Source: Chiloscyllium plagiosum (lineage: Eukaryota). Taken from it: a DNA stretch of 64,000 nt. The stretch lies in contig NC_057752.1 of the NCBI RefSeq assembly GCF_004010195.1, positions 8,018,317 to 8,082,316 on the forward strand, given 5' to 3'. Positions 54 through 61,685 of the stretch are shown here, in pieces. The notes beneath the pieces were generated by a model that saw nothing but the letters and a program-made list of their open reading frames with translations, made no database searches and was not told the DNA's origin. Position numbers and translations under genes: made by a program. Position 1 is the stretch's first letter; each line of letters starts with the position of its first letter.

Positions 54-272
54 TTGGCTCTTGCACCTATCACATTTCCAACTCCCCTCCTCCAAGTCCC
101 TCCTCCCTACCTTTTATCTTCTCCTGCTGAACACTCTCTGCTCATTCCTGAAGAAGGGCCTGTGCCCGAAACGTCGAATTTCCTGTTCCCTGGATGCTGC
201 CTGACCTGCTGTGCTGTTCCAGCAATAAAGTTTCAACTTTGATCTCCAGCATCTGCAAACCTCACTTTCTCC
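54..272 (+). mobile_element. Penelope-like element 3' terminal repeat (family A)
   Basis: C-rich tract, HHR core, then ggatgctgcctgacctgctg...ccagcatctgca...ctcactttctcc; the same end follows a GIY-YIG C-terminal remnant at 17050-17425. Confidence 0.75.
144..179 (+). ncRNA. Minimal type I hammerhead ribozyme motif
   Basis: AUUC-CUGAAGA-A-GGGC(cugu)GCCC-GAA-ACGU-C^GAAU: intact core, stem II, palindromic stem III, 4-bp stem I. Confidence 0.7.
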
Positions 273-319
273 TTGAAAATACATGTCACTAAGTTAAAGC
301 ATCTGAAATGGAGATGACC

Positions 320-4715: not shown

Positions 4716-5093
4716 GGGATGCAGTGGTGTAGTGGTAATTGGACTAGTAATCTAGAACCCCATTCTAATGTTCTGGGACATGGGTATGAATCACACCATC
4801 GTGGCTGGTGAATTTTTAAATTCAATAAAATTCAGGGTTAAAAACTAGACTAATGGCAATAATGTAATCACTGTTCACTAATGTATTTTAGGGAAGGAAA
4901 CTGCCATCCTTATCTGGTCTGGCCTACGTGTGACTCCAGACGCACAGCAATATCATTGCCTCTAACTGCCAACTGAAATGGCCTAGCAATTCATTCAACT
5001 GGATCAAATGCCAGAAAGTCTAAAGATAGGAATGAAACTGGACAGACCATCTGACATAAACCTAAGGGAACAGCAACAACTTACACAGCCCCA
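4716..5093 (+). mobile_element. 5' end (tRNA-like head + 5' UTR) of the CR1-group LINE/SINE family
   Basis: A-box tggtgtagtgg, B-box-like ggtatgaatcac; its continuation matches the sequence leading into ORF2 at 42540-42830 (-). Confidence 0.75.
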
Positions 5094-5597: not shown

Positions 5598-8500
5598 ATT
5601 TTCAAGAATTGACAGACATGGTTAAGAATTATTACGAACGCAAGCCTCCTCCAATTGTGAGATGCTATAATTTTTACACCGTAATTCGAGAACTGGGGAA
5701 TCCATAATGGGAATCTTGACTAAGTTAAGACAACTGGCAGATGCATGTAACTTTGATTTAACTCTTAGTGAAATAGAGTCATAGAGATGTACAGCACGGA
5801 AACAGACCCTTCAGTCCAACTCATCCATGCTGACCAACCCAACCCAATCTCGTCTCATCTGCCATCATTTGGCCCATAAACCCTTCCTATTCATATATCT
5901 ACCCAGATGCCTTTTAAATGTTGTAATTGCACCAGCCTCCACCAATTCCTCTGGCAGCTCATTCCATACACACACCACCCTCTATGTGAAAAAGTTGCTC
6001 CTTAGGTCCCTTATAAATTTTCCCCCTCTCACCCTAAACCTCTAGTTCTGGACTCCGCCACCCCAGAGAAAAGACTTTGTCTATTTATCCTATCCATGCC
6101 CCGCATAATTTTGTAAACCTCTATGATGTCACCCCTCAGCCTCTGACGCTCCAGGGAAAACAGCCCCAGCCTGTTCAGCCTCTCCCTGTAGCTCAAGTCC
6201 TCCATCCCTGGCAACATCCTTGTAAATCTTTTCTGAACCCTTTCAAGTTTCACAACATCTTTCCGATAGGAAGGAGACCAGAATTGCCCGCAATATTCCA
6301 ACAGTGGCCTAACCAATGTCCTGTACAGCTGCAACATGACCTCCCAACTCCTGTACTCAATACTCTGACCAATAAAGGAAAGCATACTAAATGCGTTCTC
6401 CACTATCCTATCTACCTGTGACTCCACTTTCAAGGAACGATGAACCTGCACTACAAGGTCTCTTTGTTCAGCAACACTCCCCAGGACTTTATCATCATTA
6501 AGTGTATAAGTCCTGCTCTGATTTGCCTTTCTAAAACCTTACAGCTGAAAGACCGTTTGGTATGTGGGATTAATGATGTGACCATGCAAACACACCTACT
6601 AGTTGAAGCCCAACTGGACTTCAAACAGACACTACAATTAATATTATCATTAGAAAATGCAGCAAGTGGAGCCTATGAGTTGCAGGGTATTCCAATGGAA
6701 GTTGATTCTCTTGCCAGGTCAACTGAACTTGGGGAACACCACTTGAATGAAGGCAATTGCATAGCCTCACTCAGGACACATTCTGAACAGAGGGATTCTC
6801 GGTCAGTCCACAGCAAAACCCCAAACCAAAGCCAAGCCTCAGCCAAATGGTTAACATTTTCCTCATGATCCAGGCCAGCAAGCCATTGTAGTTACTGCTA
6901 ATATGCAGACTCGAGACAAAATGAAGAGAACTCATAGACCAGTATTCAGGAGATTGCACACCCTGGGAAATTCACCTAATCTGGTTTGGAACAGTTAAAT
7001 TGTTTAACATCCAAATCAGAACCAATCAGAATAAACATCCAGTTAAATGGTCATCCAGTTCTAATGGAGGTTGATACTGGTGCAGCTGTATCAGTGATTA
7101 CAGAACCAGTCTTAAATAAAATTCACTCTGGAGTCCAACTTGGTTTGTGCAAGGCCTCGGCTAGTCTGAGAACCTACGCCAGGGAACCTTTACAGATTAA
7201 GGTTCAACTTCGGTTCCGGTCTCTTATGAGAAGCAGCTGGTTGTTACCACTGATTGTAGTAAAAGACTCTGGCCCAAGCTGGATGGGGTGAAATTGTTTG
7301 CGAGAGACTCACCTTAATTGGCTCAACATTTTTCAATTAGAAAATGGCTGCCTAAGTAAAGTCCTAATTAAATACCTGAAAGCTTTTCAGGAAGGTCTAG
7401 GGACTATTAAAGGAGTGAAGGCCACCTGGCATGTTGATCAGGAAGTAATTCCATGATTCTGCAAGGCTTGCCCAATGCCATTTGACTTACAGGCAAAAGT
7501 ACAGCCAGAAATCAGGAGGCTGGAAAGTGAAGGAATCATCAAACCAATCCAGTTTGTGGAATGGGCAGCACCAATTGTGAAGCCAGACGGGTTGGTCCAC
7601 CTTTGTGGGCATTATAAACAAATAGTAATCTGCTTCTTGCAGCTGGATAAATTTCCAATCCTTCGCCTAGAGGATTTATACACAAAGATGACAGGGGGCT
7701 GTCCTTCACAAAGCTGGATGTGAGCCATGCGTACCTGCAATTGTGGTTAGATGAGGATTCCCAGACGTATGCTACAATTAATACCCATAAGGGTTTGTAC
7801 CAATATACGAGACTACCATTTGGGGTCTCATCCATCTGTGCAACTTTTCAACAGACGATGGAGAACATTTTGCAAGGTTTACCACAGGTTGCCATTCATC
7901 TAGATGATGCCCAAATAACAGGGAAAACTAATAAGAAACACTTAGAGAACGTGGAGGTAGTCCTAAGGCATTTTCCCAAGGCAGGTGTCAACCCAAGATG
8001 GGAAAAAATGCCCCACAAGTGAACTATTTGGGCTGCAGAGTTGACAAGACTGAGTTTACACCATTGGAAAATAAAGTGAGGGCGATCAAAGATGCTCGGT
8101 CCCCATGTCTGTCAAGGAGCTTGGGTCATGTCTTGGACTGGTAAATTGACTATGGGAAGTTCATCATAACATGGCCTCCATCCTGGCACCTTTTTGTATC
8201 AACTCCTTAAAAACAAGGGTCTGCTTTGGAAATGGTCACACTGACAAGCTCAAGCTTCCAGCTCTCATCCTGTAATGTGTTGGCCCACAATGATCCCAAC
8301 TATTGATATATGATGCCTCCCCATACAGTATTAAGGTGGTACTAGCTCATAGGTGGCCTAGTGGAGAGGACTGCCCAATGACATATGCATCCAGGACTTT
8401 GGCTAATGCAAAGCATTAATATGCCCAGATAGAAGGATTGGCAGTTGTAGTTGGAGTGAGGAAGTTCCATCAGTACCTTCATGCATGAAAATTTGTGTTA

Positions 8501-9088
8501 ATTATGGACCACACACCTCTACTTGGTCTAATTAAAGAGAACATAGCTTCAGGCCGAATTCAGCAGTGGGCTTTAATACTAAGAACATATAATTACAACT
8601 TGGAACACCATTTGGGAGGCTGAGTAGTGAATGTGGATGCATTGAGCTCCTTCTCATTGGCAGATACACGCCCAGTGGTACCACCACGGAAGAGTCCATA
8701 ATGGTTTTAAGTTGTCTGGTCACAGCTTACAACATCAGACTTTGTACGCAGAAAGATCCAGTTCTAGCAAAACTGAAACAGCTGGTGGTGACGGAGGAAA
8801 CCAAAGGGCCGTCACAACTAGAATTAAAATCTTTTTGGACCTAGAGAGACTAGTTCACAGTAGAGGGTGGAATATTATTATGGGAGCAAGAGTGATTGTC
8901 CCGAGCAAAGGCCGCTGCCAGATAGTGGCTGAACTCCACCAGGGTCATCCAAGGGTGTCCAAAATGAAGATGTTGGTGAGAAGTTATATCTGGTGGCCAG
9001 GATTAAGTACAGGCATAGCAGCATTGGTGAGGCAGTGCCCAGAGTGCCAACAAGGACAAACATTACCAGCCTCCTCTGGAAGTCCCTA
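5598..9088 (+). mobile_element. Decayed Gypsy (Mag-like) internal region: gag-PR-RT-RH-IN(N-term), interrupted by a CR1
   Basis: gag LKDRLVCGIND; protease MEVDTGAAVSVI; RT WAAPIVKPDG, YQYTRLPFGVSS, IHLDD; integrase Zn finger LHQGHP...RSYIWWPG...CPECQ. Confidence 0.9.
5775..6530 (-). mobile_element. 5'-truncated CR1 (HER1-like) LINE inserted in Gypsy gag
   Basis: ORF 6029-6451(-) LYRTLVRPLLEYCGQFWSP...RRLRGD-like C-terminus; tctatgactct tail. Confidence 0.9.
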
Positions 9089-9089
9089 G

Positions 9090-10735
9090 TCTTCAACCAT
9101 TTCATTCATCCCACGTTGTATCAAGCAAAGTCTATGGTCCCTGATAACATTCTGACAATAATACTCAAGATACATGCTCCAAAACTAGCCACTTCCCCAG
9201 TGACAAAGGGACTCCAAACATTAACTCTGTTTTTCTCTCCATAGATGCTGCCAGACCTGCTGAATTTCTCTAGCACTTTCAGTTTTGGTTCCGAGCCAAG
9301 CTCTTCCAGTACAGCTACAACACTGGCATCTACCCAACAATGTGGAAAACAATGAGTAATGTCCAGTACTCAAAAAGCAGGAAAAATCCAGCCCAGCCAA
9401 ATGCCACCGCATCAGTCTTCTCTTGATGATCACCAAAATGATGGGATGGGTCGCTGACAACGCTATCGGGCAGCACTTATGAAGAAATAGCCTGCTCACT
9501 GACACCCAGTTTGGGTTCTGTCAGGGCCACTCAGCTTGTGACCTTATTGCAGCCTTCGTTCAAATATAGATAAAAGATCTGAATTCCAGAGGGGATGTCT
9601 TTGACATCAAAGTTACATTCGACCAAGTAAAGCATCAAGGAGCCCTAGCAAAACTGAAGACAGTTGGAACTGGGGGAAATGTGTTGCTGGTTAGAGTTAT
9701 ACCTGTCACAAACAGAAATAGTTGCCATTGGTTGTCGGTCATCTCAGCTCCAGGACATCTCCACAGGAGTTCCTCAAGGTAGTGTCCGAGGCCCAACCAT
9801 CTTCAGCTGCTTCATCAATGACCTTCCCTCCATCATAAGGTCAGAAGTGGGGATGCTCACTGATAATTGCACAATGTTCAGCACCATTTGCGACTCCTCA
9901 GATACTGAAGCAGTCCATGTTCAAAATGGACAATATCTAGGCTTGGGCTGACAAGTGGCAAATAACACTCACGCCACTCAAATAACAGGCAATGACCATA
10001 TACAGCAAGACAGAAGGTAACCACCACCCCGTGATATTCAATGGCATTACTTACCATCACTGAATCTGAACTCCCCACTACCAACTTCCTAGGGCCTACC
10101 ACTGACTACAAAATGAAATTAATTGACCATACGAATACAGTGGCTACAAGAGTAGATCAAAGGTTGGGGATTCTGCAGAGTGCAACTCATCTCTTGACTC
10201 CTCAAAGCCTATCCACCATCTACAAGGCACAAGTTAGAGTGTGGTGGAATACTCCCCACTTACTTGGATGAATGCACCTCCAACACTCAAGAATTTCAAA
10301 ACCATCCAGGTCAAAACAGCCCACTTGATTGTGTACCATCCACCATGTTCAACATCCACTCCTTTCATCATCAATGGACAGTGACAGCAGTGTGTACCAT
10401 CTACAAGATGCACTGAAGAAATGCAATAACGCTCACGTTACAGCACCTTCCAAATCCATAGCCTCTACCACCTAAAGGCAGTAGATACATGGCAACACTA
10501 TTATCAGCAGGTTCTTCTCTGAGTTACACACCAGCCTGACTTGGAAATATATCACCATTCCTTCATTGTTGCTGGGTCAAAACCCTGAAATTCCCTAACA
10601 GCATTGTGGTCTACTTACAGCACATGGACTACAGCATTTCAAGGCAGCTCACCACCACCCTCTCAAGGGCAACTAGGAACAGGCAATAAATACTGGCCCA
10701 GCCAGCAATGCTCATATCCCAAGGACATATAAAAA
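9090..10735 (+). mobile_element. CR1-group LINE RT and 3' end (same family as 320-3205)
   Basis: GVPQGSVRGPTIFSCFINDLP; tail gggcaactagg..aataaatactggcccagccagc; short PLE end inserted at about 9200-9290. Confidence 0.9.
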
Positions 10736-12372: not shown

Positions 12373-13318
12373 GCTAATTTAAAATTGGTTGTTTGAGTAA
12401 TTCTATGAACACAGGATTATTTAGCAAATGTTATCCAATGGTGGAATCACATCCAACATTGGACACTATGTTCTGAGTTTTGCATGCATTTTGGTTGAGT
12501 ATGGTCAGTCCTCTGCCTGTCATGGATAAATCGACTTGCTGTTTAGTAATGATCCATCGGTTGTTAAGACCTACAACATATCCAGCTGGCATCACACTGG
12601 CTCTGAAATTCATATACCACATTCTTTTTGTGTGTAGTAGACTGAACATCTTTTTTGACTTGACAGGAACATTCCGTCAGGTGCTGAATACTGAATTTCA
12701 CTAGTGTTACTATTGCACAGTAGCAGCACAACACAAAGAGCTTACTTGCTGTACAAACTTCTGAGACAACGTAGCCTTCCAAGAGTAATTGGAGGTAGAC
12801 CGGACATTTGCTAGGATCAAAAGTGGCAGCTGAGGCCGTTTCATGATATTATGTGTCATACAGTGAACAATGACCTGATCGCAGCAGCCATTATTACACA
12901 GGATAGCTTTGATGCAAATGATTTCAGCATCAAGCTTGTACAGTCAGTTACTGACTTGGGCCTATTCACAAGGTTGTCACTAAGGCCAGTCTTATAGCAT
13001 GTGGAACTACAGGAATTGCAACATGCTTATTGACCAGTGGTAGAGAACCTATGAGCAGATTTCTCAAATGAACACATTGAGGAAAGAGAGCTTGTTTGAC
13101 TGCTCCATTTCAAAGGTGAATTTGAGCACAGGTGGAACCCATTAAGGTGTGGAAAGACGTTCTTGCATATAGCTGCAGAAATAAATACAGCAAATGTATC
13201 ATCTACATATCGGAAATTTGTTGGAGATTAGGTATCATTCCATTGAAGACAGGTTTCTTGTGGAAACTAATAAAGATATTAGTCTAGAGGGGATCCAATG
13301 GCAACATAATCTATTATG

Positions 13319-13496
13319 TTAAAAATTACACAACACCAGGTTATAGTCCAACAGGTTTAATTGGAAGCACACTGGCTTTAGGAGCGGTACTCCTTCATCA
13401 GGTGACTATCACCTGATGAAGGAGCGTCGCTCCGAAAGCTAGTGTTGTGTGATTTTTAACTTTGTACACCCCAGTCCAACACCGGCATCTCCAAAT
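13319..13496. mobile_element. Palindromic non-autonomous PLE derivative (family B) with TSD
   Basis: Inverted arms centred at about 13407; flanking duplication cataatctattatg at 13305-13318 and 13497-13510; homologous to termini of 58106-59496. Confidence 0.85.
13410..13444 (+). ncRNA. Minimal hammerhead ribozyme motif
   Basis: CAC-CUGAUGA-A-GGAGC(guc)GCUCC-GAA-AGCU-A^GUG. Confidence 0.7.
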
Positions 13497-14125: not shown

Positions 14126-14625
14126 NNNNNNNNNNNNNNNNNNNNNNNNNNNNNNNNNNNNNNNNNNNNNNNNNNNNNNNNNNNNNNNNNNNNNNNNNNN
14201 NNNNNNNNNNNNNNNNNNNNNNNNNNNNNNNNNNNNNNNNNNNNNNNNNNNNNNNNNNNNNNNNNNNNNNNNNNNNNNNNNNNNNNNNNNNNNNNNNNNN
14301 NNNNNNNNNNNNNNNNNNNNNNNNNNNNNNNNNNNNNNNNNNNNNNNNNNNNNNNNNNNNNNNNNNNNNNNNNNNNNNNNNNNNNNNNNNNNNNNNNNNN
14401 NNNNNNNNNNNNNNNNNNNNNNNNNNNNNNNNNNNNNNNNNNNNNNNNNNNNNNNNNNNNNNNNNNNNNNNNNNNNNNNNNNNNNNNNNNNNNNNNNNNN
14501 NNNNNNNNNNNNNNNNNNNNNNNNNNNNNNNNNNNNNNNNNNNNNNNNNNNNNNNNNNNNNNNNNNNNNNNNNNNNNNNNNNNNNNNNNNNNNNNNNNNN
14601 NNNNNNNNNNNNNNNNNNNNNNNNN
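14126..14625. other. Assembly gap (500 N)
   Basis: Run of N. Confidence 1.
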
Positions 14626-15924: not shown

Positions 15925-16715
15925 CTCAACGTAGAAACAAAATTAGAAACTGCTGAAAAAACTCAGCGGGTCTGGCAACATCAGCAGTGCTAACCACTGT
16001 GCCACCATGTGGGCGGCACGACTGACTGTGTGGAGTTTGCACATTCTCCCCGTGTCTTCGTGGGTTTCCTCCGGGTGCTCCGGTTTCCTCCCACAGTCCA
16101 AAGATGTGCGGGTCAGGTGAATTAGCCATGCTAAATTGCCCATAGTGTTAAGTAAGGGGTAAATGTAGGGGTATGGGTGGGTTGCGCTTCGGCGGGGCGG
16201 TGTGGACTTGTTGGGCCGAAGGGCCTGTTTCCACACTGTAAGTAATCTAATCTAATATCACTGAAGAGAAGCAGAGTTAACATTTCAAGTCCAGTGACCC
16301 TTCTTCAGAATTGATTGTAGCTGAGAAATGGTTGGTATTTATGCCGAAGATGAAGTGGGGGTAGGAGGAGGATGAGTAAACAATAGGTAGCAATAGAGCC
16401 CAGAGAGAGAGAGTAAAACAGTTGGTCAGACAAAGGCATGGGTAAAGGTCAGCCTAGGAGAATGAATAGCTGCTAATAGAAACTGTTAGTGCCTGAGAAT
16501 GGGCTGTTTGAGGTAGCTGTTTGTGTAATGACAAGGCCTGGAATGTGAGGCTGGGGAGAAGGTGCCTCAAACCCTAAGGTTGTTGAACTTGATATTGAGT
16601 CCGGAAGGCTGTAAAGTTCGCAAGCAGAAAATGAGGTGCTGTTCTTATAGTTTGCGCTGGAGCACTGCAGCAAGCTTGAGACAGAGATATTGGCCAGGGA
16701 ACAGGGTCGTGTGTT
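15925..16715 (-). mobile_element. Penelope-like element 3' end (family C), interrupted by an HE1 SINE
   Basis: - strand EQHLIFCLRTLQPSGLNIKFNN (GIY-YIG C-term); HHR-like ctgaagaagggtcactggacttgaaatgtta at 16278-16310. Confidence 0.75.
15982..16255 (+). mobile_element. HE1-type SINE with rearranged 5' end
   Basis: V-domain body gtgtggagtttgcacattctccccgtgtc; ctaatctaa tail; head segment inverted. Confidence 0.85.
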
Positions 16716-17047
16716 GACTGATTGATTGATTTATTGCCATGTGCACTGAAGTACAGTGAAAAGGTTTGTTTACAAGCAGTATAGGCAGATCGTAGTCAGC
16801 AAGGATGTACAGATGGACAGAGGAATACAGGTTACATCACACAGGGCAACGCTTGGCAAGATCCACATTAACAAGATCAGCATTATTTGAAGTTACAGAT
16901 CCATTTATCAGTCTAATAATAGCACGGAAGAAGCTGTTCCTGAACCTGCTGGTGCATGTGTTCAAGCTTCTGTCTCTTACGCCTGATGGAAGAGTTTGTA
17001 GGAGAGCATTACCAGAGTGCAATGGGTCTTTGATGACAGCCTTTCTG
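16716..17047 (-). mobile_element. Rex1/Babar LINE 3' end
   Basis: - strand IKDPLHSGNALLQTLPSG..TSRFRNSFF..AIRLIN; aataaatcaatcaatc tail. Confidence 0.8.
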
Positions 17048-17049
17048 TG

Positions 17050-17425
17050 ACCCTCTAACCACACAGCATCAATGTCAATTTCACCAGTTTCCTCATCTCC
17101 CCTCCCCCCACCTCATCCCAGATCCAACCCTCCAACTCAGCACCACCCTGTTGAACTGTCCTACCTGACCATCCTCCTTCCCACCTATCCATTCTGACCT
17201 ATCACCATCAACCCACCCCACCATGCATCTATCACCTTCCCTTCCTATTCATCCCTCAAGGCCCTTCTCCACACTCCCCCCCCCTCCCCCCACATTCCTG
17301 ATGAAGGGCTTTTGCCCGAAATGTCAACTCTCCTGCTCCTCGGATGTTGCCTGACCTGCTGTAGACCTTTTCCAGCCCTACATTCTTCGACTCTAATGTC
17401 CAGCGTCTGCAGTCCTTACTTTCGC
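17050..17425 (+). mobile_element. Penelope-like element 3' end (family A) with HHR motif
   Basis: atcaatgtcaatttcaccagtttc, C-rich UTR, ctgatgaagggcttttgcccgaaatgtc at 17298-17325. Confidence 0.75.
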
Positions 17426-17689
17426 CATGGAAATGTCAAAGTAGATGCTAATTGTTGTGGAATCAAGTAGGTAACCTAGTGTGATCAGATTCTCTATAAA
17501 CCCATTGAACAGCACAGAATTGAAATGTATTGGAGCTCCAAAATAACAACTGTTCTGAACTGACACAGTGAATGTTATATCCTTCACTTTGTGGTACAAT
17601 CTGTTGAAACTTACCCTGTTGAAAGTTATAAAGATAGCATTGTAATTGAAGCACTGCACAGCCAGCTTGCATGCACTAAAAGGAGGATT

Positions 17690-18205
17690 TGGAACGGGAT
17701 TAAGAAATGAAAGCTGTGATCACTTAGGTTGTACAGTGTAAATCTACAAGAGTGAGTACAGTGGGTTACTTTCACAGAGGGTGGTGCATGTATGGAATGA
17801 GCTGCTAGAGGAAGTGGTGGAGGCTGGTACAATTGCAACATTTAAAAGGCATTAGGAGAAAGTGAGGACTGCAGATGCTGGAGATTAGAGCTGAAAAATG
17901 TGTTGCTGGAAAAGCGCAACAGGTCAGGCAGCATCCAAGGAACAGGAGAATCGACGTTTCGGGCATAAGCCATTCCTGAAGAAGGGCTTATGCCCGAAAC
18001 GTCGATCCTCCTGCTCCTTGGATGCTGCCTGACCTGCTGCGCTTTTCCAGCAACACATTTTTCAGCTGGGTATATGAATAGGAAGGGTTTAGAGGGATAT
18101 GGGCCAAATGCTGGCAAATAAGACAAGATGAATTTAGGATGTCTGGTTGGCATGGACGAGTTGGACTGAAGGGTCTGTTTCCATGCTGTACATATCTATC
18201 ACTCT
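17690..18205 (+). mobile_element. CR1 3' end
   Basis: cagagggtggtgcatgtatggaatgagctg...gggtctgtttccatgctgtaca. Confidence 0.85.
17854..18067. mobile_element. Palindromic PLE family A insertion with HHR core
   Basis: ~80-bp inverted arms 17889-17971 / 17985-18067; ctgaagaagggcttatgcccgaaacgtc at 17976-18003. Confidence 0.85.
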
Positions 18206-20147: not shown

Positions 20148-21972
20148 ATATAAACATTCCATTCTATTCATACACCTAATCTATTACTTAATATTAAAAA
20201 TGGTCACACAGATGTCACGCACTTTGTTACACTTCATTATTGATGACAAGTCCCCGCCTGAGCAAGCATACTCCAGTTGATCTCTGATGAGGCTGCATTT
20301 ACTTAACAACTAAATTTTATGAACCTAAATGGTCACTGCAACATACTCTTGCATTACATATACATAGTATGAGTTGCTCTTCCTGTATATCAGCATCTAT
20401 CTGAGTTATCACAAGCAACATGACAGGGGGTGCCCATCGCATTGTTGAAAATAGAAAATAAATCACAAGCATTTAATTCTGGTAGAGAAAAATGAGGAAG
20501 GTGGTAAGTCATTTCCTTCTGTTTTTTCTGACTATCATCAGGATGACTCAAGTAGCTGTCAGACAAAGAAACTACTGACACCAATCATCATCCAGTTAAT
20601 ATCAAGCTAAACTTATTTAAATCTCTTCCTCACAGGTAGCACCAAAGCTAGCTTACAGCTTGCACCATGTTGGAACCTGTGCTTCAAGACCCAAAATTCA
20701 TACAGGGAACACCACAAGCAATCAGCTGAAAGCATGCACAGTAAACGGTCACCCCTTAAATACATGCCAATTATCAGAGTTGTTCAATAAACATGCAATT
20801 ATGAAGTGCTTGAAATATACTCATTGAACATCAGTAGCAGGCAATGCACTGGTCAGTGTCAACACTGAGACCCCCATTATGGATAAAGGAACAGCAAAAA
20901 TTTCAGTCCACACACAGGATGATGCTTTGGCAAAGCTATTCATGCTGACCTCATTCATTTGCATGATGACTCAAAAGTAAGTACTGTAACAGAAAACTGT
21001 GCATCACTTCAAGCTTCTAATCTCATTCTGGGCTCAGACTGAAGAACACAAACTTAGCTGCTGTAGTCAATAACGTCAAGCAAGTCAAACAATTCAATTT
21101 TAACTGTGGAATCCCTCCTTGAATGTTTTTTTGTTTAAACTGCAAATATTAAACAACAGAATTCTTCTTCAACCAAATACTTGTGAAAATGGAAGGATTA
21201 GGCAGAGCAGTGTGCCAGTATTTACATTATCACTCTGGGAGAGAGCAGAACAGTGCTCTTTGATGTAACACAATGGCAGAGAAAAGCATAAGCCGAACAA
21301 ACTGACAATACTGCCAGAAAAGCAAGGCCCCAACCAAAACAAAACAGCTCGGTATTGATATAGTTGTCAGAGAGCAGCTTGGAAAGCAATGCAGTGTGGA
21401 AGTTTCATTCATGTAGGGTGGTTGCAGGATGGGACTGAGTGTGAAAAAGAAAACTTGTTTACTATCTGTTGTGTGCAGATCTGATTTAATGGCCTTGCCC
21501 TTGAAAAAATGTTTCAATGCAGATATAACTGGTTTAGAGAACAGAATGAGTAATAAAGCGAGCTGTCCATTAAATGTGACTCATCTCCAAAAAGCAAGTC
21601 TAATCCTCTTCAGGCCAATTTGATATTTTCCATCCAATGTTATCTCTTAAAGGGACTCTGCTGTGCAAATAACAAAGAACAGTACAGGACAGAAACAAGC
21701 CTTCGGCCCACAAAGACTGCACCGAGACATGACACCTTTCTAGACTAAAATAGCTCTACATTGTCCGTATCTCTCTATTCCCTGCCTATTCATGTATTTG
21801 TTGAGATGTCTCCTAAACGTTGCTATTGTATCTGGTTTTACCAACCGAGGACTACTCTTAAAACTTAGAGAATTATGATCAATGTTCCCAAAATGATCCC
21901 ATACTGAAACTTCAATGGCCTGGCTGGGCTCATTCTCCAATATTGAGTCTAGGGTAGCCTCTTCCCTAATTA

Positions 21973-22238
21973 GGTAAAAACAATGACTGCAGATGCTGGA
22001 AACCAGATTCTAGATTAGAGTGGTGCTGGAAAAGCACAGCAGTTCAGGCAGCATCCGAGCAGCAGGAAAATCGACATTTCGACAGGCAGAGAGCCTGGAG
22101 GGTGGAGAGATAAGCTAGAGGAGGGTGGGGGTGGGAAGAAAGTAGCATAAAGTACAATAGGTGAGTGGGGGAGGGGATGAAGGTGATAGGTTGGGGGAGG
22201 GAGGGTGGAGTGGAAAAGAACTCCCTCCCCTGACCTAT
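21973..22238 (-). mobile_element. PLE family A terminal insertion with 13-bp TSD
   Basis: tcttccctaatta at 21960-21972 and 22239-22251; short inverted segment 22221-22238. Confidence 0.8.
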
Positions 22239-24429: not shown

Positions 24430-24990
24430 AGCATTTGGTATAACATTATGGAAAGAAGGTCCTGACTTAAATAAATTAGCACTGTCAGTTCATACTGAGG
24501 TGGACACCAAAACAGTTGCAGAGTGATATCATCTAAAGAATGGAGTGGAAGATGAGGAAGTGGAACAACCCAAAGACCCACAGATGAAGAATGGTCAGTT
24601 GTACATCAGGTAGTGATAGCCCCCAGCTAATGAAGGGAGATATTGCAAGAAGCACGTGAAATTCCCATGGCAGGGCATGTGGAAATCTGAAAAACTCAGA
24701 TGCCCATAAACAGGCATTTTACCTGGCCAAAACTGCATGAAGGTATTGTGCAGTTTTGTAAAACATGCCATATTTGTCAAGTTGTAGGTAAACCTCAACA
24801 TGTAATTAAACCAGTGCCCCTGATTCCAACAGTGGCTTTTGAGGAACCATTCAGTCATGTACTAATGGATTGTGTTGGACCATTATCTAAAAGAAATATA
24901 TTCCTACAATTATGGATACCACCACTCGATTTCCAGAGGTTATTCCCTTAAGGACAATCAGAACTAAGGTGGTAGTGGAAAAACTAAGTT
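24430..24990 (+). mobile_element. Gypsy integrase fragment (Gmr1-like)
   Basis: HFTWPKL...FCKTCHICQVVGKP...PLIP..AFEEPFSHVLMDCVGPL, TRFPE.IPL. Confidence 0.85.
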
Positions 24991-35644: not shown

Positions 35645-35740
35645 CATTCGTCTTGAAGGGCTTATGCCCGAAACATCAACTCTCCAGCTCTTCAGATGCT
35701 GCCTGACCTGCTGTGCTTTTCCAGTGCCACGCTTTACAAA
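35645..35740 (+). mobile_element. PLE family A terminal fragment
   Basis: gaagggcttatgcccgaaacatc...gatgctgcctgacctgctgtgc. Confidence 0.7.
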
Positions 35741-35804
35741 TCCAAAGTAGAACTACCACATATAGCTTTAAGTTTGATTTGTATTTTCAAATTGTGTGTT
35801 AAGA

Positions 35805-37643: not shown

Positions 37644-38060
37644 ATGTGAACAAACAAAAAGTGGAATGCTATGTCACATGACCTTGCTATGTCTTACAGC
37701 CTCATAGGAAGATTAGACACAGCAAGATGTTCCTTAAGTCAGATTAGTGTTTTCCTTACCTTAACTAAATAATCTGTAGCAACACAACTAGATTAAGGAA
37801 TATTATAATACTTTACTCAACTCTGCATACCAAATTCATGTTGTGGCAAGCAATTCTTAGTGACAAGATTTGAACATTAACATCTCTTCTCTATTAATTC
37901 CAGGGAATTTAACATCTGCTTTAACTTTTAGTAGCACAATATGGTTTCACCAATAATTCAGAGCTACAATAAAATATTTTAATAACTAGGCTTGATCCAT
38001 CTTCCCATATTAACTAGAAAGCAACAGATTCTTTCATACCTGATTGGCTGATAATTGACT

Positions 38061-38258
38061 CTGGGAGTGTATTGCTGGAAAAGTACAGCAGTCAGGCAGC
38101 ATCCGAGGAGCAGGAAAATCGACGTTTTGGGCCAGAGCCCACATTCTGATGAAGGGCTCTGGCCCAAAACATCAATTTTCCTGCTCCTTGGATGCTGCCT
38201 GACCTGCTGTACTTTTCCAGCAATACACTCTCAACTCTGATCTCCAGCTCACTGTCTC
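38061..38258. mobile_element. Palindromic PLE family A insertion with TSD
   Basis: Inverted arms around 38141; ctgataattgact at 38048-38060 and 38259-38271; HHR core with G12 mutated. Confidence 0.85.
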
Positions 38259-40195
38259 CTGATAATTGACTTTGCCACCCCAATCCTTTTTTTTAAAACA
38301 TCATCCCCGGATTTTTCAGGAAACTGCAGAAAAGCCCAGGAAGGTTTTCAACCCTATTAGTAACTAAGGGAATGTTAACAGCTGGCCTTAAATTTACTGT
38401 AAGTTGTTTGTTGACAGTACTTTTAGGTCAGCACAGACTGTTGTGTCAGAGATGAGGAATCCACACCCAGCCCCAGAGGGAAGTGCAAAATAACTCTCAA
38501 ACTTGTAAGAAGATTATTTTTAAAAATAAACACATAGAGGAGAAACACTTTACAGGATGTCAAGGCTTTGTAAGGCAGCTGAGGAAATTTACAAGAATGG
38601 GAATGTGATTATTTAAAATAACTACACAATGACAGTTAAAGGGAAATTTAATACAGATGTTCAGCATGGAAGGGTTTTTGACGGAACAGATCAGGAATGT
38701 TTCCTGTGGCAGTAGCCATCAACATGAGGATACAGATTTAAGACGACTGTACAGCAGTGATAAGAATGCTTTCACTCCAGCAAGTTATGATAATATGGAA
38801 CACACTGCTTAAAAAGCAGTGAAAGCAGTTTCAATAATAACTTGCAAGAGTAAATTTGATATACTTAAAAGAAAACAAAATGTAAAACTAATTTGATAGC
38901 TGTTCCAGAGCCAAAAAAAGCACAACAGGCCTAATGGCTTCTATGAAAAATAGAAAATCAAATACACTGAGTTTTGAACACAGAATGTTCATTAACATTA
39001 GGAGCATGAGTCATATCAATGTATGGTTTAATGAAAAATCTCTTTTAGTCGCCAGTGTCTTGATCCACAGCAGATGCCAAATTTCACATTCCATTAGCAA
39101 ATTCCTAGAGCTGCTTCTGTAAGCAGACAGTTTTGTTTCGAAATGAAAGCATGAGATTCCAGTCTATAAGAAGATGCAACACATTAAAAAGAACTGAACT
39201 GTTTTTTCACGTCAGCTCATCTTCATAACAATCTTAGAAGCAATCTTTACTTCTTAGGTTCCAAACTTCAAATTTGCGACATCACAGGAACAATCCTCTA
39301 CTCAACTCCCCCACCCCATTCTGTATTATTCAGACAGATCAGGCTTCTGATTTAACCTCTGAATATATTTTCTCATTTTCCCCTAATGCCACTAAACTTC
39401 TACTAGCCCACACCCACATACACTGTGCCAGGTGGCCTGTGAAATGTTACGGTGTTCAAAACGTCTCTGATGCCAATCATTTTATCGAAAAATTTGCTCA
39501 GTTTCCCAGAGTTACACTGTGAAACTGTGATGTTATCCAACTGGAAGTTCAGTTAGATAATCACAGGGCTCTGTTCCTGTTCTGTGAACAGTTACACATT
39601 GGGCTGCATTCTAGTGACGTAATTGAAAAAGAGCTTCTCAAATATCTTGCTGAAAAGCACTCTGAGAAGTTATCACAGAGAGGAAATCTGTGCAGTACCC
39701 ACACAACCAATGCCAGAGTTCTCTGGGACTGGTCATATCTAGGTAAAAGGATCATCAATCAGCGGTCACAGATTTAAATGTGTTTACAGATTTATTGGGG
39801 AGATAAAGAGATTTGTTGGGATCTGTGAATACATGGCATTTGCTGATTACTGAATAATTTAAAAAATAAGTTGCAAATATTCTTAGGGATGTGGAGACAA
39901 CAGGACTATCAGCAAAAAGAAAGGGTGAAGGTCTAAGCATGACTGCTCTTTCAAAATGTTAGCAGATGCCCGTCAGGATGAGTAACTCCTAATTGTGCTG
40001 TAATTTTAACGATTGTATGACTGATGCAAAGTCATGAGACCTCACTTTCTCCTTTCATTAAACTCAGCCAACCCAGATGTAAGCAATTCTTCTATCATTA
40101 CATTCCTTTATTCATTGTAAATATATAAATTGTATGACAAGGATTGATGAAAAAAGGGTTCTTTATTTGAAGATAAGATTAATATAACATAGCGA

Positions 40196-45611: not shown

Positions 45612-45937
45612 GATTAGATTAGATTCCCTACAGTATGGAAACAGGCCCTTCGGCCCAACAAGTCCACACCGACCCTCCGAAGAGTGACCCACCCAGACCC
45701 AGTCCAATACCCTATACTGACCCCTGACTAATGCACCTAACACTACGGGAAATTTACCATGGCCAATTCAGCTGACCTGCTCATCTCTGGACTGTGCGAG
45801 GAAACCGGAGCACCCGGAGGAAACCCACGCAGACATGGGGAGAATGTGCAAACTCCACACAGACAATTGCCCGAGGTGGGAATCAAACTTGGATCCCTGG
45901 CACTGTGAGGCAACAGTGCTAACACTGAGCCACTGTG
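45612..45937 (-). mobile_element. HE1-type SINE
   Basis: Full V-SINE structure on - strand. Confidence 0.9.
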
Positions 45938-46021
45938 CAGACAAAGCTGCTGCTTTCCCAAACTTGCAATGAAATACATTAAAAAAACCATTAAATGAGA
46001 AGATGATTTTCAGATACAATT

Positions 46022-46345
46022 GGGCGGCACGGTGGCACAGTGGTTAGCACTGCTGCCTCACAGCGCCTGAGACCCGGGTTCAATTCCCGCCTCAGGCGAC
46101 TGATTGTGTGGAGTTTGCACGTTCTCCCCGTGTCTGCGTGGGTTTGCTCCAGTTTCCTCCCACAGTCCAAAGATGTGCAGGTTAGGTGAATTGGCCATGC
46201 TAAATTGCCCGTAGTGTTAGGTAAGGAGTAAATGTAGGGGTATGGGTGGGTTGCGCTTCGGCGGGTCGGTGTGGACTTGTTGGGCTGAAGGGCCTGTTTC
46301 CACACTGTAATGTAATGTAATGTAATGTAATGTAATCTAATCTAA
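46022..46345 (+). mobile_element. HE1-type SINE with (AATGT)n tail
   Basis: gggcggcacggtggcacagtggttagc, gggttcaattccc B-box. Confidence 0.92.
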
Positions 46346-47177: not shown

Positions 47178-47340
47178 GGAAACAAAAGCAAAGTTCTGCA
47201 TATGCTGCAGATCTGAATTAAAAACAAAGTGTTGGAAAAACTCAGCAGACAATTGGATTGAATTAGAAATGTTAACTCTATTTCTCTCTCCACAGATGCA
47301 GCCAGACCAGCTGAGTTTCTCCAGCAATTTCTGTTTTTAT
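47178..47340. mobile_element. Degenerate fold-back PLE family C terminus
   Basis: ggaaaaactcagc ... gaaatgttaactctatttctctctccacagatgc...ctgagtttctccagc. Confidence 0.6.
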
Positions 47341-47377: not shown

Positions 47378-48860
47378 AGTGGCTGAATGGTAATATCACT
47401 GGATTAGAAATCCAGAAACCCAGGTTAATATTCTGGTAACAAGGATTCAAATCACACCATGACAGATGGTGAAATTTGAATTCAATAAAATCTGCAATTA
47501 AAGGTAAATCTAAAAGCCACTGTGTAAATTATAGGCAACTGCATATGACCTGTCCTACTGGCAGGACAGACCCAAAAGAGGTGGCAGCAGAGTGGTAATC
47601 AGTCAGGAAGGGGTTCACCTGGGAAATCTCAACATCAACGGCATACCCCATGAAATCCCATTAAAACAGGCAAGAAAACTTTCTGCAGCTCCACTACAGA
47701 TCAAGATGGTCAGGCCCTAAAGGAAATAGCTGCAAGACTGGGTCTGCAGCAGGTGGTAAGGTAACCAACAAGAGGGAAAAATATACTTGACCTCTTCCTT
47801 ACTAATCTGCGGCTGCAGATGTATCTGTCCATGACAGTATCAGTAAGAGCGACCACTGCACTGTCCTTGTGCAGACGAAGATATGCCCTTGCCAATGAGG
47901 GTGCCTTCAATTGTGTTGTGTGGCACTATTAGGCAAAAGTGAGGACTGCAGGTGCTGGAAATCAGAGTCTAGATTAGAGTGGTGCTGGAAAAGCACAGCA
48001 GGTCAGGCAGTATCCGAAAAGCAGGAAAATCAACGTTTCGGGCAAAAACCCTTCATTAGGAATGAAGGGGCACTGTTCAGTTAGCATAGCACTATTGCCT
48101 TGCTAACTGAACAGATCTAGCAATTCAATACTGGGCATCCAAGAGGTGCTGTGAGCCATCAGCTGCAACAGAGTCATACTCCAGCACAATCTGTAATCTC
48201 ATGGCCCATCATATCCCCCACTCAACTATTACCATCAAGCCTGGAGATCAACCCTGGTTCAATGGAGACTGCAGGATGGTATGCCAGGAGCAGCACCAGG
48301 CATTTCAAAAATAAGATGTCAACCTAGCGAGGCTACGAAACAGGACTACTCGTATGCCAGACAGCATAAGCAGCAAGTGATTCACAGAGCTAAGTGATCC
48401 CACAACCAATGGATCAGATCTAAGTTCTGCAGTCCTACCACATCCAGTCATGAATGGTGGTTGATGATTAAACAACTCACTGGAGGAGGCGGCTCCACAA
48501 GTATCCCCATCCTCAAATGATGGAAGAGCCCAACATATCAGTGTAAAAGATAAGGCTGAAGCATTAGAAAAACCATTCAACCAGAAGTGCCAAGTGAATG
48601 ATCCACCTAGGGTTCCTCCAGTGGCCCCCAACATCACATTTCAATTTACTCCACGTGATATCAAGAAACGGTTGCAGGCACTGGATACTGCAAAGGCTCT
48701 GGGCCCTGACAACATTCCAGCAATAGTACTGAAGACTTGTGCTCCAGAACTTGCTGCTCCCCTAGCCAAGCTCTTCCAGTACAGTTACAACACTGGCATC
48801 TACCCGACAATGTGGAAAATTCCCCAGGTATGTCCTGTGTATAAAAAGCAGAACAAATCT
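47378..48860 (+). mobile_element. CR1-group LINE 5' half with tRNA-like head
   Basis: gtggctgaatggtaatatcactggattag...ggattcaaatcac head, then APE and KALGPDNIPAIVLK. Confidence 0.85.
47931..48088 (-). mobile_element. PLE family A terminal insertion with TSD gcactatt
   Basis: gcactatt at 47923-47930 and 48089-48096. Confidence 0.8.
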
Positions 48861-51770: not shown

Positions 51771-51997
51771 AAAGAAAGTAGGGACTGCAGATGCTGGAGA
51801 TCAGAGTTGAAAAGTGTGGTCCTGGAAAAGCACAGCAGATTAGGCAGCATCCGAGGAGCAGGAGAGTCGACATTTCGGGCATAAGCCCTTCATCAGAATT
51901 GTGATGAAGGAATTCCTGATGAAGTGCTTATGCCTGAAACGTCGACTCTCCTGCTCCTCGGATGCTGCCTGACCTGCTGTGCTTTTCCAGCACTACG
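51771..51997. mobile_element. Palindromic PLE family A insertion with HHR cores on both strands
   Basis: - strand core 51868-51899, + strand core 51912-51948; imperfect flanking duplication ccatt..ccagtg. Confidence 0.85.
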
Positions 51998-52494
51998 CCA
52001 TTGCTCCAGTGTCATTCTGGTACTTTGCCCAAGTGATTATTCTTTTCTATATAATGCCTGGACAATGAGCATCTGTACTGAACAGAACGGGATAGCATTA
52101 TAACCAAACCCAATGTTTTCCCCACTCCACACAGGGAGGGTTTCTGGTTGATCTGCTCCTCCCCAACCCTGGACCCTGAACTCACTGTTGACACTCTGCG
52201 TAAGATCAGCTTCATCCAGCATAGATATGGAATCAAACTCTTAAATGTTCCTTGCTATTACCAGCAGGCACCCAAGCAGCCAAAACAACACTAGTTTGAA
52301 GTATAAATACTGTTATTGCTGGTGCTGAAATGCATGCTTTAATTGTGAAAATTCATTAAGTTGCAAATCACAAAACAACATTTTTAATTTAATACATTAT
52401 AATTAAAACAAAATAATTAATTTAATAATTTAATGTACCTGAGCAGCAAGCAAGTGCAGCACACCCAAAATGTAGTCTTACCTGCAACGACCAT

Positions 52495-56887: not shown

Positions 56888-57118
56888 GGTCAGCAGGCTG
56901 TAGGCCCCGAGCAGAGCAGGGATGGTCAGTGAGGCTGGAGGTCTGAGTGAGGTTGGGATGGTCAGTGGGTTGGAGGCCCGAGTGAGGTTGGAATGGTTAG
57001 TGGACTGGAGACCCGAGTGAGGTTGGGATGGTCAGTGGGCTGGAGGCCTGAGTGAGGTTGGGATGGTCAGTGGGCTGGAGGCCCGAGTGAGGTTGGGAAG
57101 GTCAGTGGGCTGGAGGCG
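56888..57118. repeat. 35-bp minisatellite, about 6.5 copies
   Basis: Unit ggtcagtgggctggaggcccgagtgaggttgggat (starts at 57030, 57065, 57100). Confidence 0.9.
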
Positions 57119-58105: not shown

Positions 58106-59496
58106 GTTAAAAAATCACACAACACCAGGTTATAGTCCAACAGGTTTATTTGTAAGCACTAGCTTTCGGAGTGGAGTGTAAGATCGTAAGACACAGAATT
58201 TATAGCAAAAGTTTACAGCGTGATATGCAACTGAAATGATATATTGAAAAAGACCTGGGTTGTTTGTTAAGTCTCTCATCTTCTGTTCGCAGCAAACAGC
58301 CCGACTTTCAGGACAATGCCATACAACCCTGTCACAGTGGACGCTGCAAGACATGTTACAGAGTTGACGTGGATACCACCACTACACATGCGGACAACAC
58401 CCGCCATGTACGCGGCAGGTACTCATGCGACTCGGCCAAAGTTGTCTATCTCATACGTTGCAGGCAAGGATGCCCCGAGGCATGGTTCATTGGTGAGACC
58501 AAGCAGACGCTACGGCAACAGATGAATGGACGCCGCACAACAATCACCACTGAGGAGTGTACCCTCCCAGATGGAGAACACTTCAGCGGTCCTGACATTC
58601 AACCTCAGACCTTCTGGTGACCATTCTCCAAGGCGGACTTCGGGACAAGCAACAACGCAAAGTGGCCAAGCAGAGGCTGATGGTCAAGTTCGGCAGCCAT
58701 GGGGATGGCTTCAACCAGGACCTTGGGGTCATTTCACACTACAGATGACCCCACTGCACTACACTCTCTCTCACACACACAAACACACCTACAGACCTTC
58801 TCTCATACGCTCACACATACACACCCTCTCACAGACTTATACCCCTTTACACACATACACATACACAGTTTGTGGGGTGCATTTGTACTTGCAGAATTAC
58901 ATTTTATTTTGCTCAAATGCATGAATCCAAATAAGATTCTGTAGAAATAGAATCAATCTGAACATTGGTGCACAGATAGAAAAACTTTAACCTCAACCTT
59001 CAATGGCACCTTCAAAGGTGCTGACATGGCACCTATTGTTAAAGTTCACTTGAGAATGTAACTTTAAAAAAAGTTCTGGGGTTTACATATGAAAGAACTG
59101 AAAACAATATTGGTGCACAGATAGAAAAACTTTAACCTCAACCTTCAATGCATTATCTGAGCTGACATGGCACCTATTGTTAAAGTTCACTTGAGAATGT
59201 AACTTTAAAAAAAGTTCTGGGGTTTACATATGAAAGAACTGAAAACAATATGGTCATTCCAAAAGATGAGAGGCTTAACAAACAATCCCGGTCTTTTTCA
59301 ATATATAATTCTAGTTACATCACACTGTAAACTTTTGCTATAAATTCTGTGTCTTACGATCTTATACTCCACAACCACCTGATGAAGGAGCAGTGCTCCG
59401 AAAGCTAGTGCTTCCAAAAAAACCTGTTGGACTGTAACCTAATGTTGCGTGATTTTTAATTTTGTACACCCCAGTCCAACACCGGCACCTCCAAAT
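58106..59496 (+). mobile_element. Penelope-like element (Neptune-type, family B): inverted 5' arm, Zn-finger linker + GIY-YIG, CA-rich UTR, HHR
   Basis: QPCHSGRCKTC...CDSAKVVYLIRC..C..WFIGET..LRQ.MNG; 58106-58281 is an inverted copy of 59263-59460. Confidence 0.9.
59376..59410 (+). ncRNA. Minimal hammerhead ribozyme motif
   Basis: CAC-CUGAUGA-A-GGAGC(agu)GCUCC-GAA-AGCU-A^GUG. Confidence 0.7.
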
Positions 59497-61685
59497 TAAA
59501 AGAAAACATAGGCTGTGAGGAAACAATTCAGTGAGATTCTTAAATACTAGTATTGGTTGTAGAGAATCTTCTGGTCAACATATAAACAGTATTGTTCGGA
59601 AACAAAGACAGCTTCTTTTGGTGTCTAGGATTGAACAAATGTTGATCAGTATTCTCAGTGAATTGATCGAACCAATGGGTGATGTTAATGGATTTTGAAC
59701 TTTAATTGCAGCCTTTACCTGATGTAAAATAAGTGTTTCATTTAAAATAAACTTCAGATAAAGGATGTAATTGAGGAAATATTTGTGTTTTGTGAACATA
59801 ATGTTCACTGAGCTGATGCATGTTGCTGCTTGAGAATAAAGCACTTCATTGTGGGCATCAGGCTGTGTCAGGTCAAATTCAGCGTTCTTTAGTAGCAGGT
59901 TCTGATATCATTTACATGATTACACTGTGGGGTGAATTTTATCCTTTAACAATAAAATGGAAAATAACTATATTTTACAATAAATTCCAGGAATGTGTGT
60001 TATGAGAATACAATTTGTTAATTTTAAGCAAAAACAGACTTGCTCCCATTTTCAATCCAGAGGAATTTCACCCTGTTCTCTTTAATATATATTCTTCACT
60101 GTAACCGCCCCACATATTTCATTGTTTCCAAACGAACATGTATTTTGGCTTTCTCACTTTTAGCAATTAATTTTATTTTCTTTCCTCCCCAAACATTGAC
60201 TGATAGTGTTGCGATCCTGACACCAGAAGGTACTGAAGGGTGGCTTGGGAATGACCACAGCTACTCCACAAAGTAATGTTCGCATCAAATGACTCCAGTT
60301 CAGGCACAAAATACAATGGGGGAACCAAATTGTGCCCTGACACAGTGGTAATACTTATTACCTTACACTAGTTCACTTTGTGTAATTTCTGCCTTCTAAC
60401 CAGTCTTCAAGATGTTTCCCCCTTATCTATTGAGAGCTGTCAAGTGTATTAGCATGATTGTTACTTCCTCATTTTAAGTGAGGCCATCCCTCTCTTTGCT
60501 GTTGTCTGAACATCAGCATTTAAAGAAAATCTACTCTCAAGCTTGTTAACACATAGGAACTTACCCTCTTTAACAACATCCAGACTGTATTTTATGACTA
60601 GCTTTGATTTTATCTTTTTTTCCCAAGATTCTTTAATAACCTGACTCTTGTCATCCACTTTCACTCACACTCTTCCCCAATGCACATGCCCGAAACATTT
60701 TCTTCAAATCACATCCTAGGTTGCTTTGTAACAGAAGTGTATCTTGTGATCTTTGCTCGTCAAATTGGTGACTGGAGTAAAATGAAAGTGGCTGACAACC
60801 TCAGCCAGCATTGTACACATATGTTCACGACTCTCTCACCTTCTGAGCTCCTTGTAAACATGATCAATGTATTTCCAAGAGTTAATCTGGCCTTTCATCT
60901 GCATTTTAAAACTGTTTCACCCAATTTAAGAAATCTGATACCTTCTATGCTTATTGTTTGTTAAGCATTCTGATTTGTTTATATATCTTATTAACAGTGA
61001 ATACTGACATTACCATTCACTGATAAAGGCTTGGCATAATGAATGGTTACTATAGGAAAGTGGAAAATGTACTTTTTCCAAATAATGAGATAATAGAATG
61101 TGAGAAACATAATATTGGAGAAAAACTCAAGCTCCAATTAAAAGTTATTTGGAGTTTTAAAATCCTTTTTTAAGACTTCTTGTTAAAACTGAGTCAATCT
61201 ATCACTTGTAGTTTTGATTTCCATACCCTATGTAATTAGATCTATGGAGAGGTATTGAATAATATTTGAACAATGTTAATTTTGACTATATTTCTATATA
61301 ACCCTTCATCCACCGAATCTCATCTGTTCCCCATCCTCTAGCGCATCTCTCCTTTCTACCAAGACAGCACACAGCAATTGATGCATAATGCAATCAAAAC
61401 GTTGTTAGTTTGAGAGGCTCTAGGTGGGATAAACTGCCAGCGGGTAAAGATTCATTTTACTTTATACAGAAGCAATGTATTGAAAATGACTGTGGAAGCA
61501 GCTTTTAAATTAGTTTCACTCAATTGCTGCAATCTGAAGCAATGCTTCATTATTTATATGACATTAACAGGATGTGATGCACTCAACATTGGCAAGACTA
61601 ACGTCAGAACATTGATACGTGTACATATATTTGCGAATACAAAAATTCTCAGACTGAAGGCAGAGAATGAAGTATATTAAACTGC

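Follow-up and report, generated by a model that had tools for sequence, protein, structure and literature searches.

Minimal hammerhead motifs of several Penelope-like families in a 64-kb stretch of shark DNA, with copies that are most likely not cutting

Setting and inventory of the motifs

The window, that is, the whole 64-kb stretch of Chiloscyllium plagiosum DNA that was analysed, has a G+C content of 41% and is made up in its bulk of retroelement fragments. A Pfam scan of 99 of the 201 stop-to-stop open reading frames (ORFs) of at least 70 aa, which omitted ORFs overlapping repeats or frames already seen, returned only retroelement domains and no host exons or genes. The neighbouring repeats are presumably CR1-like and gypsy-like.

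Dispersed in this setting are short motifs of the type CUGANGA-A-helix II-GAA, which an earlier note had placed at nine positions and divided into families A, B and C. All nine places carry the motif where they were said to, with C3 (in the standard hammerhead numbering) at 148, 13413, 16308(-), 17298, 17976, 38146, 51896(-), 51916 and 59379, and the predicted cut sites after 175, 13441 and 59407 are correctly placed. A descriptor search, one of the checks that had been proposed, was made with a strict minimal-hammerhead descriptor (full core, helix II of at least 4 bp, helix I of at least 2 bp, and palindrome). It found four matches in the window (C3 at 148, 13413, 17976 and 59379) and none in any of 200 dinucleotide shuffles, and therefore the motifs are not chance occurrences. 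When the palindrome was dropped, the relaxed descriptor matched six places in the window, against a mean of 0.045 and a maximum of 1 in 200 shuffles. The four strict matches are the copies that had been termed intact, rightly so, as they possess the complete core, the palindrome and both helices (4 of 9 overall).

The core C3 U4 G5 A6 N7 G8 A9...G12 A13 A14 A15.1...U16.1 H17 is kept in eight of the nine copies, the exception being 38146, in which G12 is changed to A. The G10.1-C11.1 pair closing helix II is present in seven, with G-U in its place at 51916 and 16308. Helix I has 2–4 bp in the six descriptor matches and is also seen by eye at 38146 and 51916, while it is missing at 17298. The palindrome is retained in five copies, as ACGU at 148, 17976 and 51916 and as AGCU at 13413 and 59379, and is lost in the other four, each time through one CpG-type change; AUGU replaces it at 17298, at 51896(-) and in family C. 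The ACGU that had been given as a mark of family A is thus present in three of its six listed copies and absent from 17298, 51896(-) and 38146, and the GUC site ascribed to the same family fails at 38146, which has an AUC site and ACAU. An extra A after A9 is present in all nine copies, as had been stated, but it had to be rejected as a novelty or special trait, because one unpaired base before helix II already belongs to the class published in PMC4209133.

A profile search brought out copies absent from the first list, namely 48059(-) with G5 changed to A, 35650 with a decayed core, and 13401(-) with G12 changed to U. It also found incomplete inverted arms (17983(-), 38140(-)), copies whose core is deleted (~22087(-), ~58170(-)) and C-like remnants (9201, 47266). 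The downstream tail is common to families A and C, and family B is unrelated to them at the DNA level. The positions of these features are collected in Table 1.

Table 1. Positions of motifs, carrier insertions and associated features in the window
Positions	Strand	Feature	Details
59..277	+	Family A terminal-repeat insertion holding the 148 motif	Leader rich in pyrimidines, then motif and tail; start position approximate
144..179	+	Family A minimal hammerhead, intact	C3 148; helix I 4 bp, helix II 4 bp; ACGU; predicted cut after 175
9201..9295	+	Decayed C-like terminal-repeat remnant	Core unrecognisable; E 1.2e-06
13317..13496		Family B head-to-head inverted insertion	Junction ~13407; ~38-nt tail on one arm
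13373..13404	-	Family B motif on inverted arm	G12 to U, palindrome broken
13410..13444	+	Family B minimal hammerhead, sequence intact	C3 13413; AGCU; predicted cut after 13441; hairpin-locked by inverted arm
14126..14625		Assembly gap	500 bases
15950..15982	-	Remaining family C tail	Split from motif by younger repeat at ~15983-16256
16277..16310	-	Family C minimal hammerhead	C3 16308; AUGU; two G-U pairs in helix II; GUU site
16573..16700	-	Penelope-type GIY-YIG endonuclease C-terminal remnant	Upstream of family C motif, same strand; one stop (X), one frameshift
17050..17151	+	Possible endonuclease C-terminus remnant, weak	Upstream of 17298 motif
17294..17329	+	Family A motif	C3 17298; AUGU, helix I broken, both CpG-type changes
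17851..18067		Family A head-to-head inverted insertion	Within LINE fragment; long tail on one arm
17972..18005	+	Family A minimal hammerhead, sequence intact	C3 17976; helix I 2 bp; hairpin-locked
21971..22230	-	Family A insertion	Hammerhead core deleted
35645..35742	+	Decayed family A copy	C3, G5, A6 changed
38057..38263		Family A head-to-head inverted insertion	C3 38146 motif, G12 to A; 13-bp target-site duplication at 38048 and 38259
47192..47328		C-like inverted remnant pair	Right arm from ~G12
47927..48070	-	Family A copy	C3 48059; G5 to A
51772..51998		Family A head-to-head inverted insertion	Nested fold-back at junction; motifs hairpin-locked
58106..58284	-	Family B inverted 5' arm	Hammerhead core deleted
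58285..58745	+	5'-truncated GIY-YIG endonuclease region of Penelope-like element	Frameshift near 58594
59376..59410	+	Family B minimal hammerhead, intact	C3 59379; helix I 3 bp, helix II 5 bp; AGCU; predicted cut after 59407
59417..59437	+	AATAAA/ATTAAA signal position (lost here) and family poly(A) addition sites	Sites 59433, 59437
59459..59496	+	One-sided tail	Lies between the two 3' ends seen in family B

Rfam hammerhead families gave no match up to E 5 in the window, nor up to E 10 around 148 and 59379. The Rfam matches that did appear were set aside as chance hairpins, and microRNA matches at 17929-18027 and 51849-51963 as inverted insertions with scores far under the thresholds. The pattern of the family A tail had no match in viral contigs and none in metagenome contigs.

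Carriers of families B and C

The family B motif at 59379 ends a 1.4-kb insertion that consists of an inverted arm, a truncated endonuclease region and a 3' repeat, and lies 630 nt downstream of the endonuclease fragment. This fragment aligns with a shark protein at 64% and 74% identity (E 5e-55) and is matched by 107 of 160 proteins. RT and GIY-YIG domains are present in its relatives, the best named of which are from Hemiscyllium ocellatum, Chiloscyllium punctatum and Mustelus asterias (57-67% identity; 7 of the 10 matches are so named). A C-X4-C-X2-C linker precedes the GIY-YIG domain at ~58330-58356, and family B is most likely of Neptune type, a placement made by the linker, which Nematis also has (PMC8557442).

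Family B is very abundant, its repeat being found in 41720 and 45332 DNA contigs in two runs (contig counts, not copy numbers). The 3' ends of these contigs lie at 59459, 59493 and 59496, that is, at both ends of the tail. Within the element, a 141-base tandem duplication occupies 58964-59251 in the 3' untranslated part. The tail region at 59450-59500 contains a run resembling a branch point, a pyrimidine tract and CAG, and in each of the three runs with reads the loose letters past 59496 start with CATG, as would be expected were an ORF start to follow the tail in full elements.

For family C, the endonuclease remnant upstream of the motif has an iE of 0.011 in the profile search and ranks 1 of 111518 windows with a small endonuclease profile, which was built from 24 of the 55 motif-bearing proteins (of 160) after the remnant had been noticed. 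At 15950-17431 the C element (-) and an A element (+) stand back to back with a LINE tail between them; both are truncated within the endonuclease C-terminus, and another repeat sits in the C tail.

Four short insertions in the window are head-to-head pairs with a tail of 35-40 bases on one arm, and two of the four have target duplications of 13-14 bp (for 13317..13496, 14 bp at 13305 and 13497). These inverted arms, one-sided tails and target duplications agree with the structure of Penelope-like elements (PLEs) as described in PMC8557442 and PMC11167929. The motifs had been attributed to minimal type I hammerheads in Penelope-like terminal repeats (pLTRs); the attribution holds for family B and is supported for family C, while that of family A is indirect. 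Neither a PLE RT nor two same-strand hammerhead pLTRs around an intact ORF were found in the 64-kb window, and the window copies are truncated elements.

Conservation between families and decay within family A

Between families, the core is identical and the helices change in step. The compensated changes comprise ACGU to AGCU, which preserves self-pairing, UC/GA to AC/GU in helix I, and G-C to A-U in helix II; these pairs were read from a coordinate-registered table, since the MAFFT alignment set family B out of register. Judged by such comparisons, a fixed core with co-changing helices would fit selection in active elements. The statement that stem II differs between families and still pairs is borne out by the G-C to A-U change, except at 51916, where helix II is broken.

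Greater conservation of the core than of the flanks, which had been expected of family alignments, is not seen among the family A copies, where the core decays like the flank. Changes number 5/88 in the core and 22/296 in the tail (Fisher p 0.81), in a test of low power on the eight copies with a complete span, three partial copies being omitted. Selection on individual copies was rejected on this comparison. In the same eight copies, 14/64 positions in CpG columns are changed, and three CpGs coincide with G12, the palindrome and the cut site, as a result of which copies die fast.

Proposed origin of the motifs

The motifs are real, and the window copies are almost all mutated or folded shut. 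With high probability, they are minimal type I hammerheads of PLE pLTRs from several shark families, present here as copies that were dead on arrival, are trapped, and most likely do not cut. Their carriers would be short, 5'-truncated and often head-to-head PLE insertions. Within one RNA of the living element, two copies would swap strands, the palindrome (ACGU in A, AGCU in B) forming helix III between them. The RT-endonuclease protein of the element probably assists the cutting, and a cut after C17 or A17 would, by analogy with published elements, process the element RNA. The window copies would then be insertion products not under selection, whose decay is mostly at CpG sites (G12, palindrome, cut site) and which are probably for the most part trapped by their own inverted arms and most likely uncut. 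The extra base, the palindrome and the dimer model are already in Cervera and de la Pena 2014 (PMC4209133).

RNA of family B

RNA data came from one poly(A) single-cell run, of which ~2% was read. On the family B repeat 3763 reads were found, only 36 of them at an identity of at least 99%, and therefore the reads stem from other family B copies; a few strong loci may supply most of them. The strand ratio is ~6 to 1, sense being assigned by the A-runs lying behind on the + strand. Depth is flat over 59407 (2040 before, 2080 across) and falls to 596 after 59431, and the flat depth implies that uncut polyadenylated family B RNA exists.

The A-runs start at 59433 (852 reads) and 59437 (597 reads), 26-30 bases past the predicted cut site and 11-15 bases after an AATAAA/ATTAAA signal, which is present in most reads and lost in the window copy. 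Both addition sites are upstream of both genomic 3' end positions of the family. Among the positions listed, none on the family B repeat has many read starts or ends. No RNA record was listed for 58240-59500, which tells neither for nor against its transcription. Because an oligo-dT library cannot keep either cleavage product, however, the run shows the uncut pool and not an absence of cutting.

Insertion boundaries near helix I

Six of the ten insertions that keep the C3 position (13413, 17976, 38146, 51896, 48059 and 35650) begin 3-6 bases upstream of C3, with boundaries or junctions at 13407, 17978, 38140, 51906, 48065 and 35645. The other four extend ~85, 250, 390 and 1095 bases further. 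The offsets were determined by eye, and three insertions without a placeable C3 were omitted; the p value of the clustering, 0.006 to 0.00001 according to the assumed span, is from an ad hoc post hoc binomial and should be taken as a hint.

The DNA contigs give comparable positions. In run X1, 5' loose ends lie at 59376 and 59377 (158 and 181 contigs), which are both of the two such ends listed, and in run X10 the largest of the three listed lies at 59377 (177 contigs); none of those listed is at the base following the cut site. All four opposite-strand joints listed have one end at 59368-59379. Since the letters preceding 59377 have a motif in common, one subfamily or an inverted arm may supply part of the peak there. 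A start or splice site close by would be a plain alternative for the clustering, and a D. virilis intron is described as ending at the 5' end of helix I (PMC4209133).

Boundary clustering and poly(A) site together may mark the ends of the element's RNA. A tentative joint reading, which is put forward as a possibility on the doubtful side, is that RT halts past C3, that poly(A) is added before the 3' priming sites, that cutting strips the tail, and that the uncut RNA is the template. RT starting from the tail of the 5' terminal repeat would run ~120 bases, halt 3-6 bases past C3 and fold back. With a poly(A) signal 10 bases past the cut site, transcripts would stop short of the 3' repeat's priming sites, and their poly(A) tail would be taken off by hammerhead cutting. 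If true, this would account for the very large number of short copies in sharks, whether hammerhead-plus-tail or head-to-head, and the insertion ends would constitute a genome-wide record of the uncut RNA template. No published account of the helix I boundary or of the poly(A) site was found in a literature search that lacked most subscription papers, and these two features may be the only new parts of the present analysis.

The same boundaries, which lie at the 5' edge of helix I and not at the cut site, could also mean that the motif is kept mainly as a structural or boundary signal (for the RNA 5' end, for protein binding or for the pairing of two template RNAs), cutting being secondary or absent. 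This proposition is compatible with the preferred explanation and is in keeping with the commonness of polyadenylated uncut RNA and with the anole element, in which catalytic mutants left insertion in vitro unaffected (PMC11167929). It is nevertheless considered unlikely, because all catalytic positions are kept across families with changed helices, which fits selection for chemistry, and because the anole hammerhead does cut, though only with the element's protein, with rescue between C3 and G8 (PMC11167929). Moreover, a promoter or splice site that merely adjoins the motif could give the boundary clustering.

Predicted folding and cutting

The earlier note had proposed that the four intact copies could cut themselves if transcribed, possibly in trans with another copy. 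Neither proposal is supported by the folding predictions, in which three of the four pair with the inverted arm of their own insertion. In native flank, the inverted arm brings the helix II probability to 0.00 at 13413, 17976, 38146, 51896 and 51916. The motif at 59379 has a local helix II probability of 0.66-0.84, and an inverted arm 1.2 kb upstream pairs its bases from G12 through the cut site with a probability of 1.00 in a transcript that includes the arm. The copy at 148 is the sole intact one without an inverted arm visible in the window, and its helix I probability drops to 0.00-0.01 in native flank. These are equilibrium predictions, whose outcome co-transcriptional folding or protein could alter.

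With regard to cutting in trans, heterodimers of A with B are rejected at +17.3 kcal/mol, and 148 alone is free of an inverted arm. Active same-family dimers lie +1.1 to +3.1 kcal/mol above two free monomers (40-nt pieces) and 5-14 kcal/mol over the best co-fold. As the dimer, taken in isolation, is only 1-3 kcal/mol over the monomers, a free pair may on energy grounds be able to cut. Dimer cleavage of this hammerhead class was reportedly described by Lunse et al.

Such energies bear on the proposition that intact dispersed copies cut host transcripts by pairing with a copy of their own family, either in trans or, across long introns, in cis. The dimers would hold a helix III of 4 bp and helices I of 2-4 bp each at the small cost just given, partners exist in the sense-biased family B RNA of the one run, and dimer cleavage of the class has been published (PMC4209133). 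The proposition is very unlikely all the same, in view of the trapping of three of the four intact copies, the loss of helix I in the fourth, the more stable co-folds, and the absence from the window of a compatible free pair or, in the 99 of 201 ORFs scanned, of a host exon. Published minimal PLE hammerheads were inactive as monomers and of low activity as cis dimers (PMC4209133), and one of nine Xenopus dimers cut in published tests. Read ends at the cut site are absent from the anole RNA-seq as presented in PMC11167929 and from the family B positions listed.

Assignment of family A

No link of family A to an ORF was obtained by profile search, by homologue search with its 40-residue remnant (a weak test) or by pairwise BLAST; the 40-residue remnant of family C likewise yielded no homologues in such a weak test, and pairwise BLAST of A against C found nothing. 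The possible endonuclease remnant upstream of the 17298 motif comprises 14 residues that rank 2 of 105000 windows, with a score of 12.2 against 11.5 for the next, barely over background. Although no convincing ORF adjoins the family A copies, it is very unlikely that family A is not Penelope-like and represents the tail of a SINE or LINE in which a sequence resembles a hammerhead, given the tail that it has in common with family C, itself provided with an endonuclease remnant, its head-to-head arms with a one-sided tail, and the matching peptide remnant upstream on the same strand.

Two family A insertions have further structure. The one at 51772..51998 holds two motifs, 51896(-) with AUGU and 51916(+) with the broken helix II. 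At the 5' end of the insertion with 48059, a 45-base hairpin (48070-48114) consists of flanking DNA and its inverted copy and adjoins an 8-base duplication; template jumping during insertion is possible.

Comparison with known elements

The assignment to PLE terminal repeats may be set against the known systems. The minimal hammerheads of metazoan PLEs in PMC4209133 share with the window motifs the CUGANGA core, the unpaired base before helix II, G10.1-C11.1, the GAAA-N-N-U-H segment with a palindromic 15.1-16.1, a short helix I (2-5 bp), and the absence of loop 3. They too occur as thousands of mostly single copies, with some opposite-strand pairs 100-700 bp apart. The intact window copies possess every sequence feature given in that paper, their helix II of 4-5 bp being at the short end of the published range. 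Acropora Neptune (Fig. S3 of PMC4209133) has a helix II and a site close to those of family A. The host group differs, as cartilaginous fish do not appear in the listed entries of Table S1 and Fig. S3. A canonical type I hammerhead, with helix III and a contact between loops 1 and 2, is unlike the window motifs in that a match to its Rfam model is absent.

The Anolis carolinensis Poseidon element PAc (Frangieh et al. 2024, PMC11167929) is similar in having a pLTR hammerhead, two reverse-transcription start sites that leave a one-sided tail of 30-40 nt, and uncut RNA as the template, with no RNA-seq ends at the cut site in the data presented there. In contrast, family B has the cysteine linker of the Neptune/Nematis type, and whereas the PAc ORF starts at helix II, the AUG in the family B core runs into a stop after 8 codons. 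Neptune EN+ PLEs (Craig et al. 2021, PMC8557442) resemble family B in the C-terminal GIY-YIG after a CX2-5CxxC linker, and the window copies in the 3' hammerhead, the inverted 5'-truncated arm and the tail at one end.

Non-LTR retrozymes (bioRxiv 10.64898/2026.07.22.740005; PMC7229834) are also short hammerhead repeats derived from PLEs, and they are reported in the sole chondrichthyan genome sampled (bioRxiv 10.64898/2026.07.22.740005). Retrozymes, however, are head-to-tail arrays of at least two units, and they were rejected here as none of the nine tandem arrays of the window overlaps a motif.

The window copies add shark examples to a hammerhead class known since 2014. As the starts and ends of copies relative to the cut site report which RNA was copied, shark genomes with very many copies could be informative on the role of the ribozyme in the life cycle of PLEs.

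Other repeats in the window

Broken pieces of LTR retroelements, with matches to protease, RT and integrase zinc finger, are found at 6980-9086 and 24691-24948. At 45613-46326 lies an imperfect inverted repeat of 700 bases, made up of two head-to-head copies of a further repeat family. The segment 47380-47436 has a tRNA-like match under the Rfam threshold (E 0.33) and belongs to a repeat also present at 4740 and 29503, which is probably the head of a tRNA-derived SINE. A minisatellite with 5.7 copies of a 35-base unit occupies 56919-57117.
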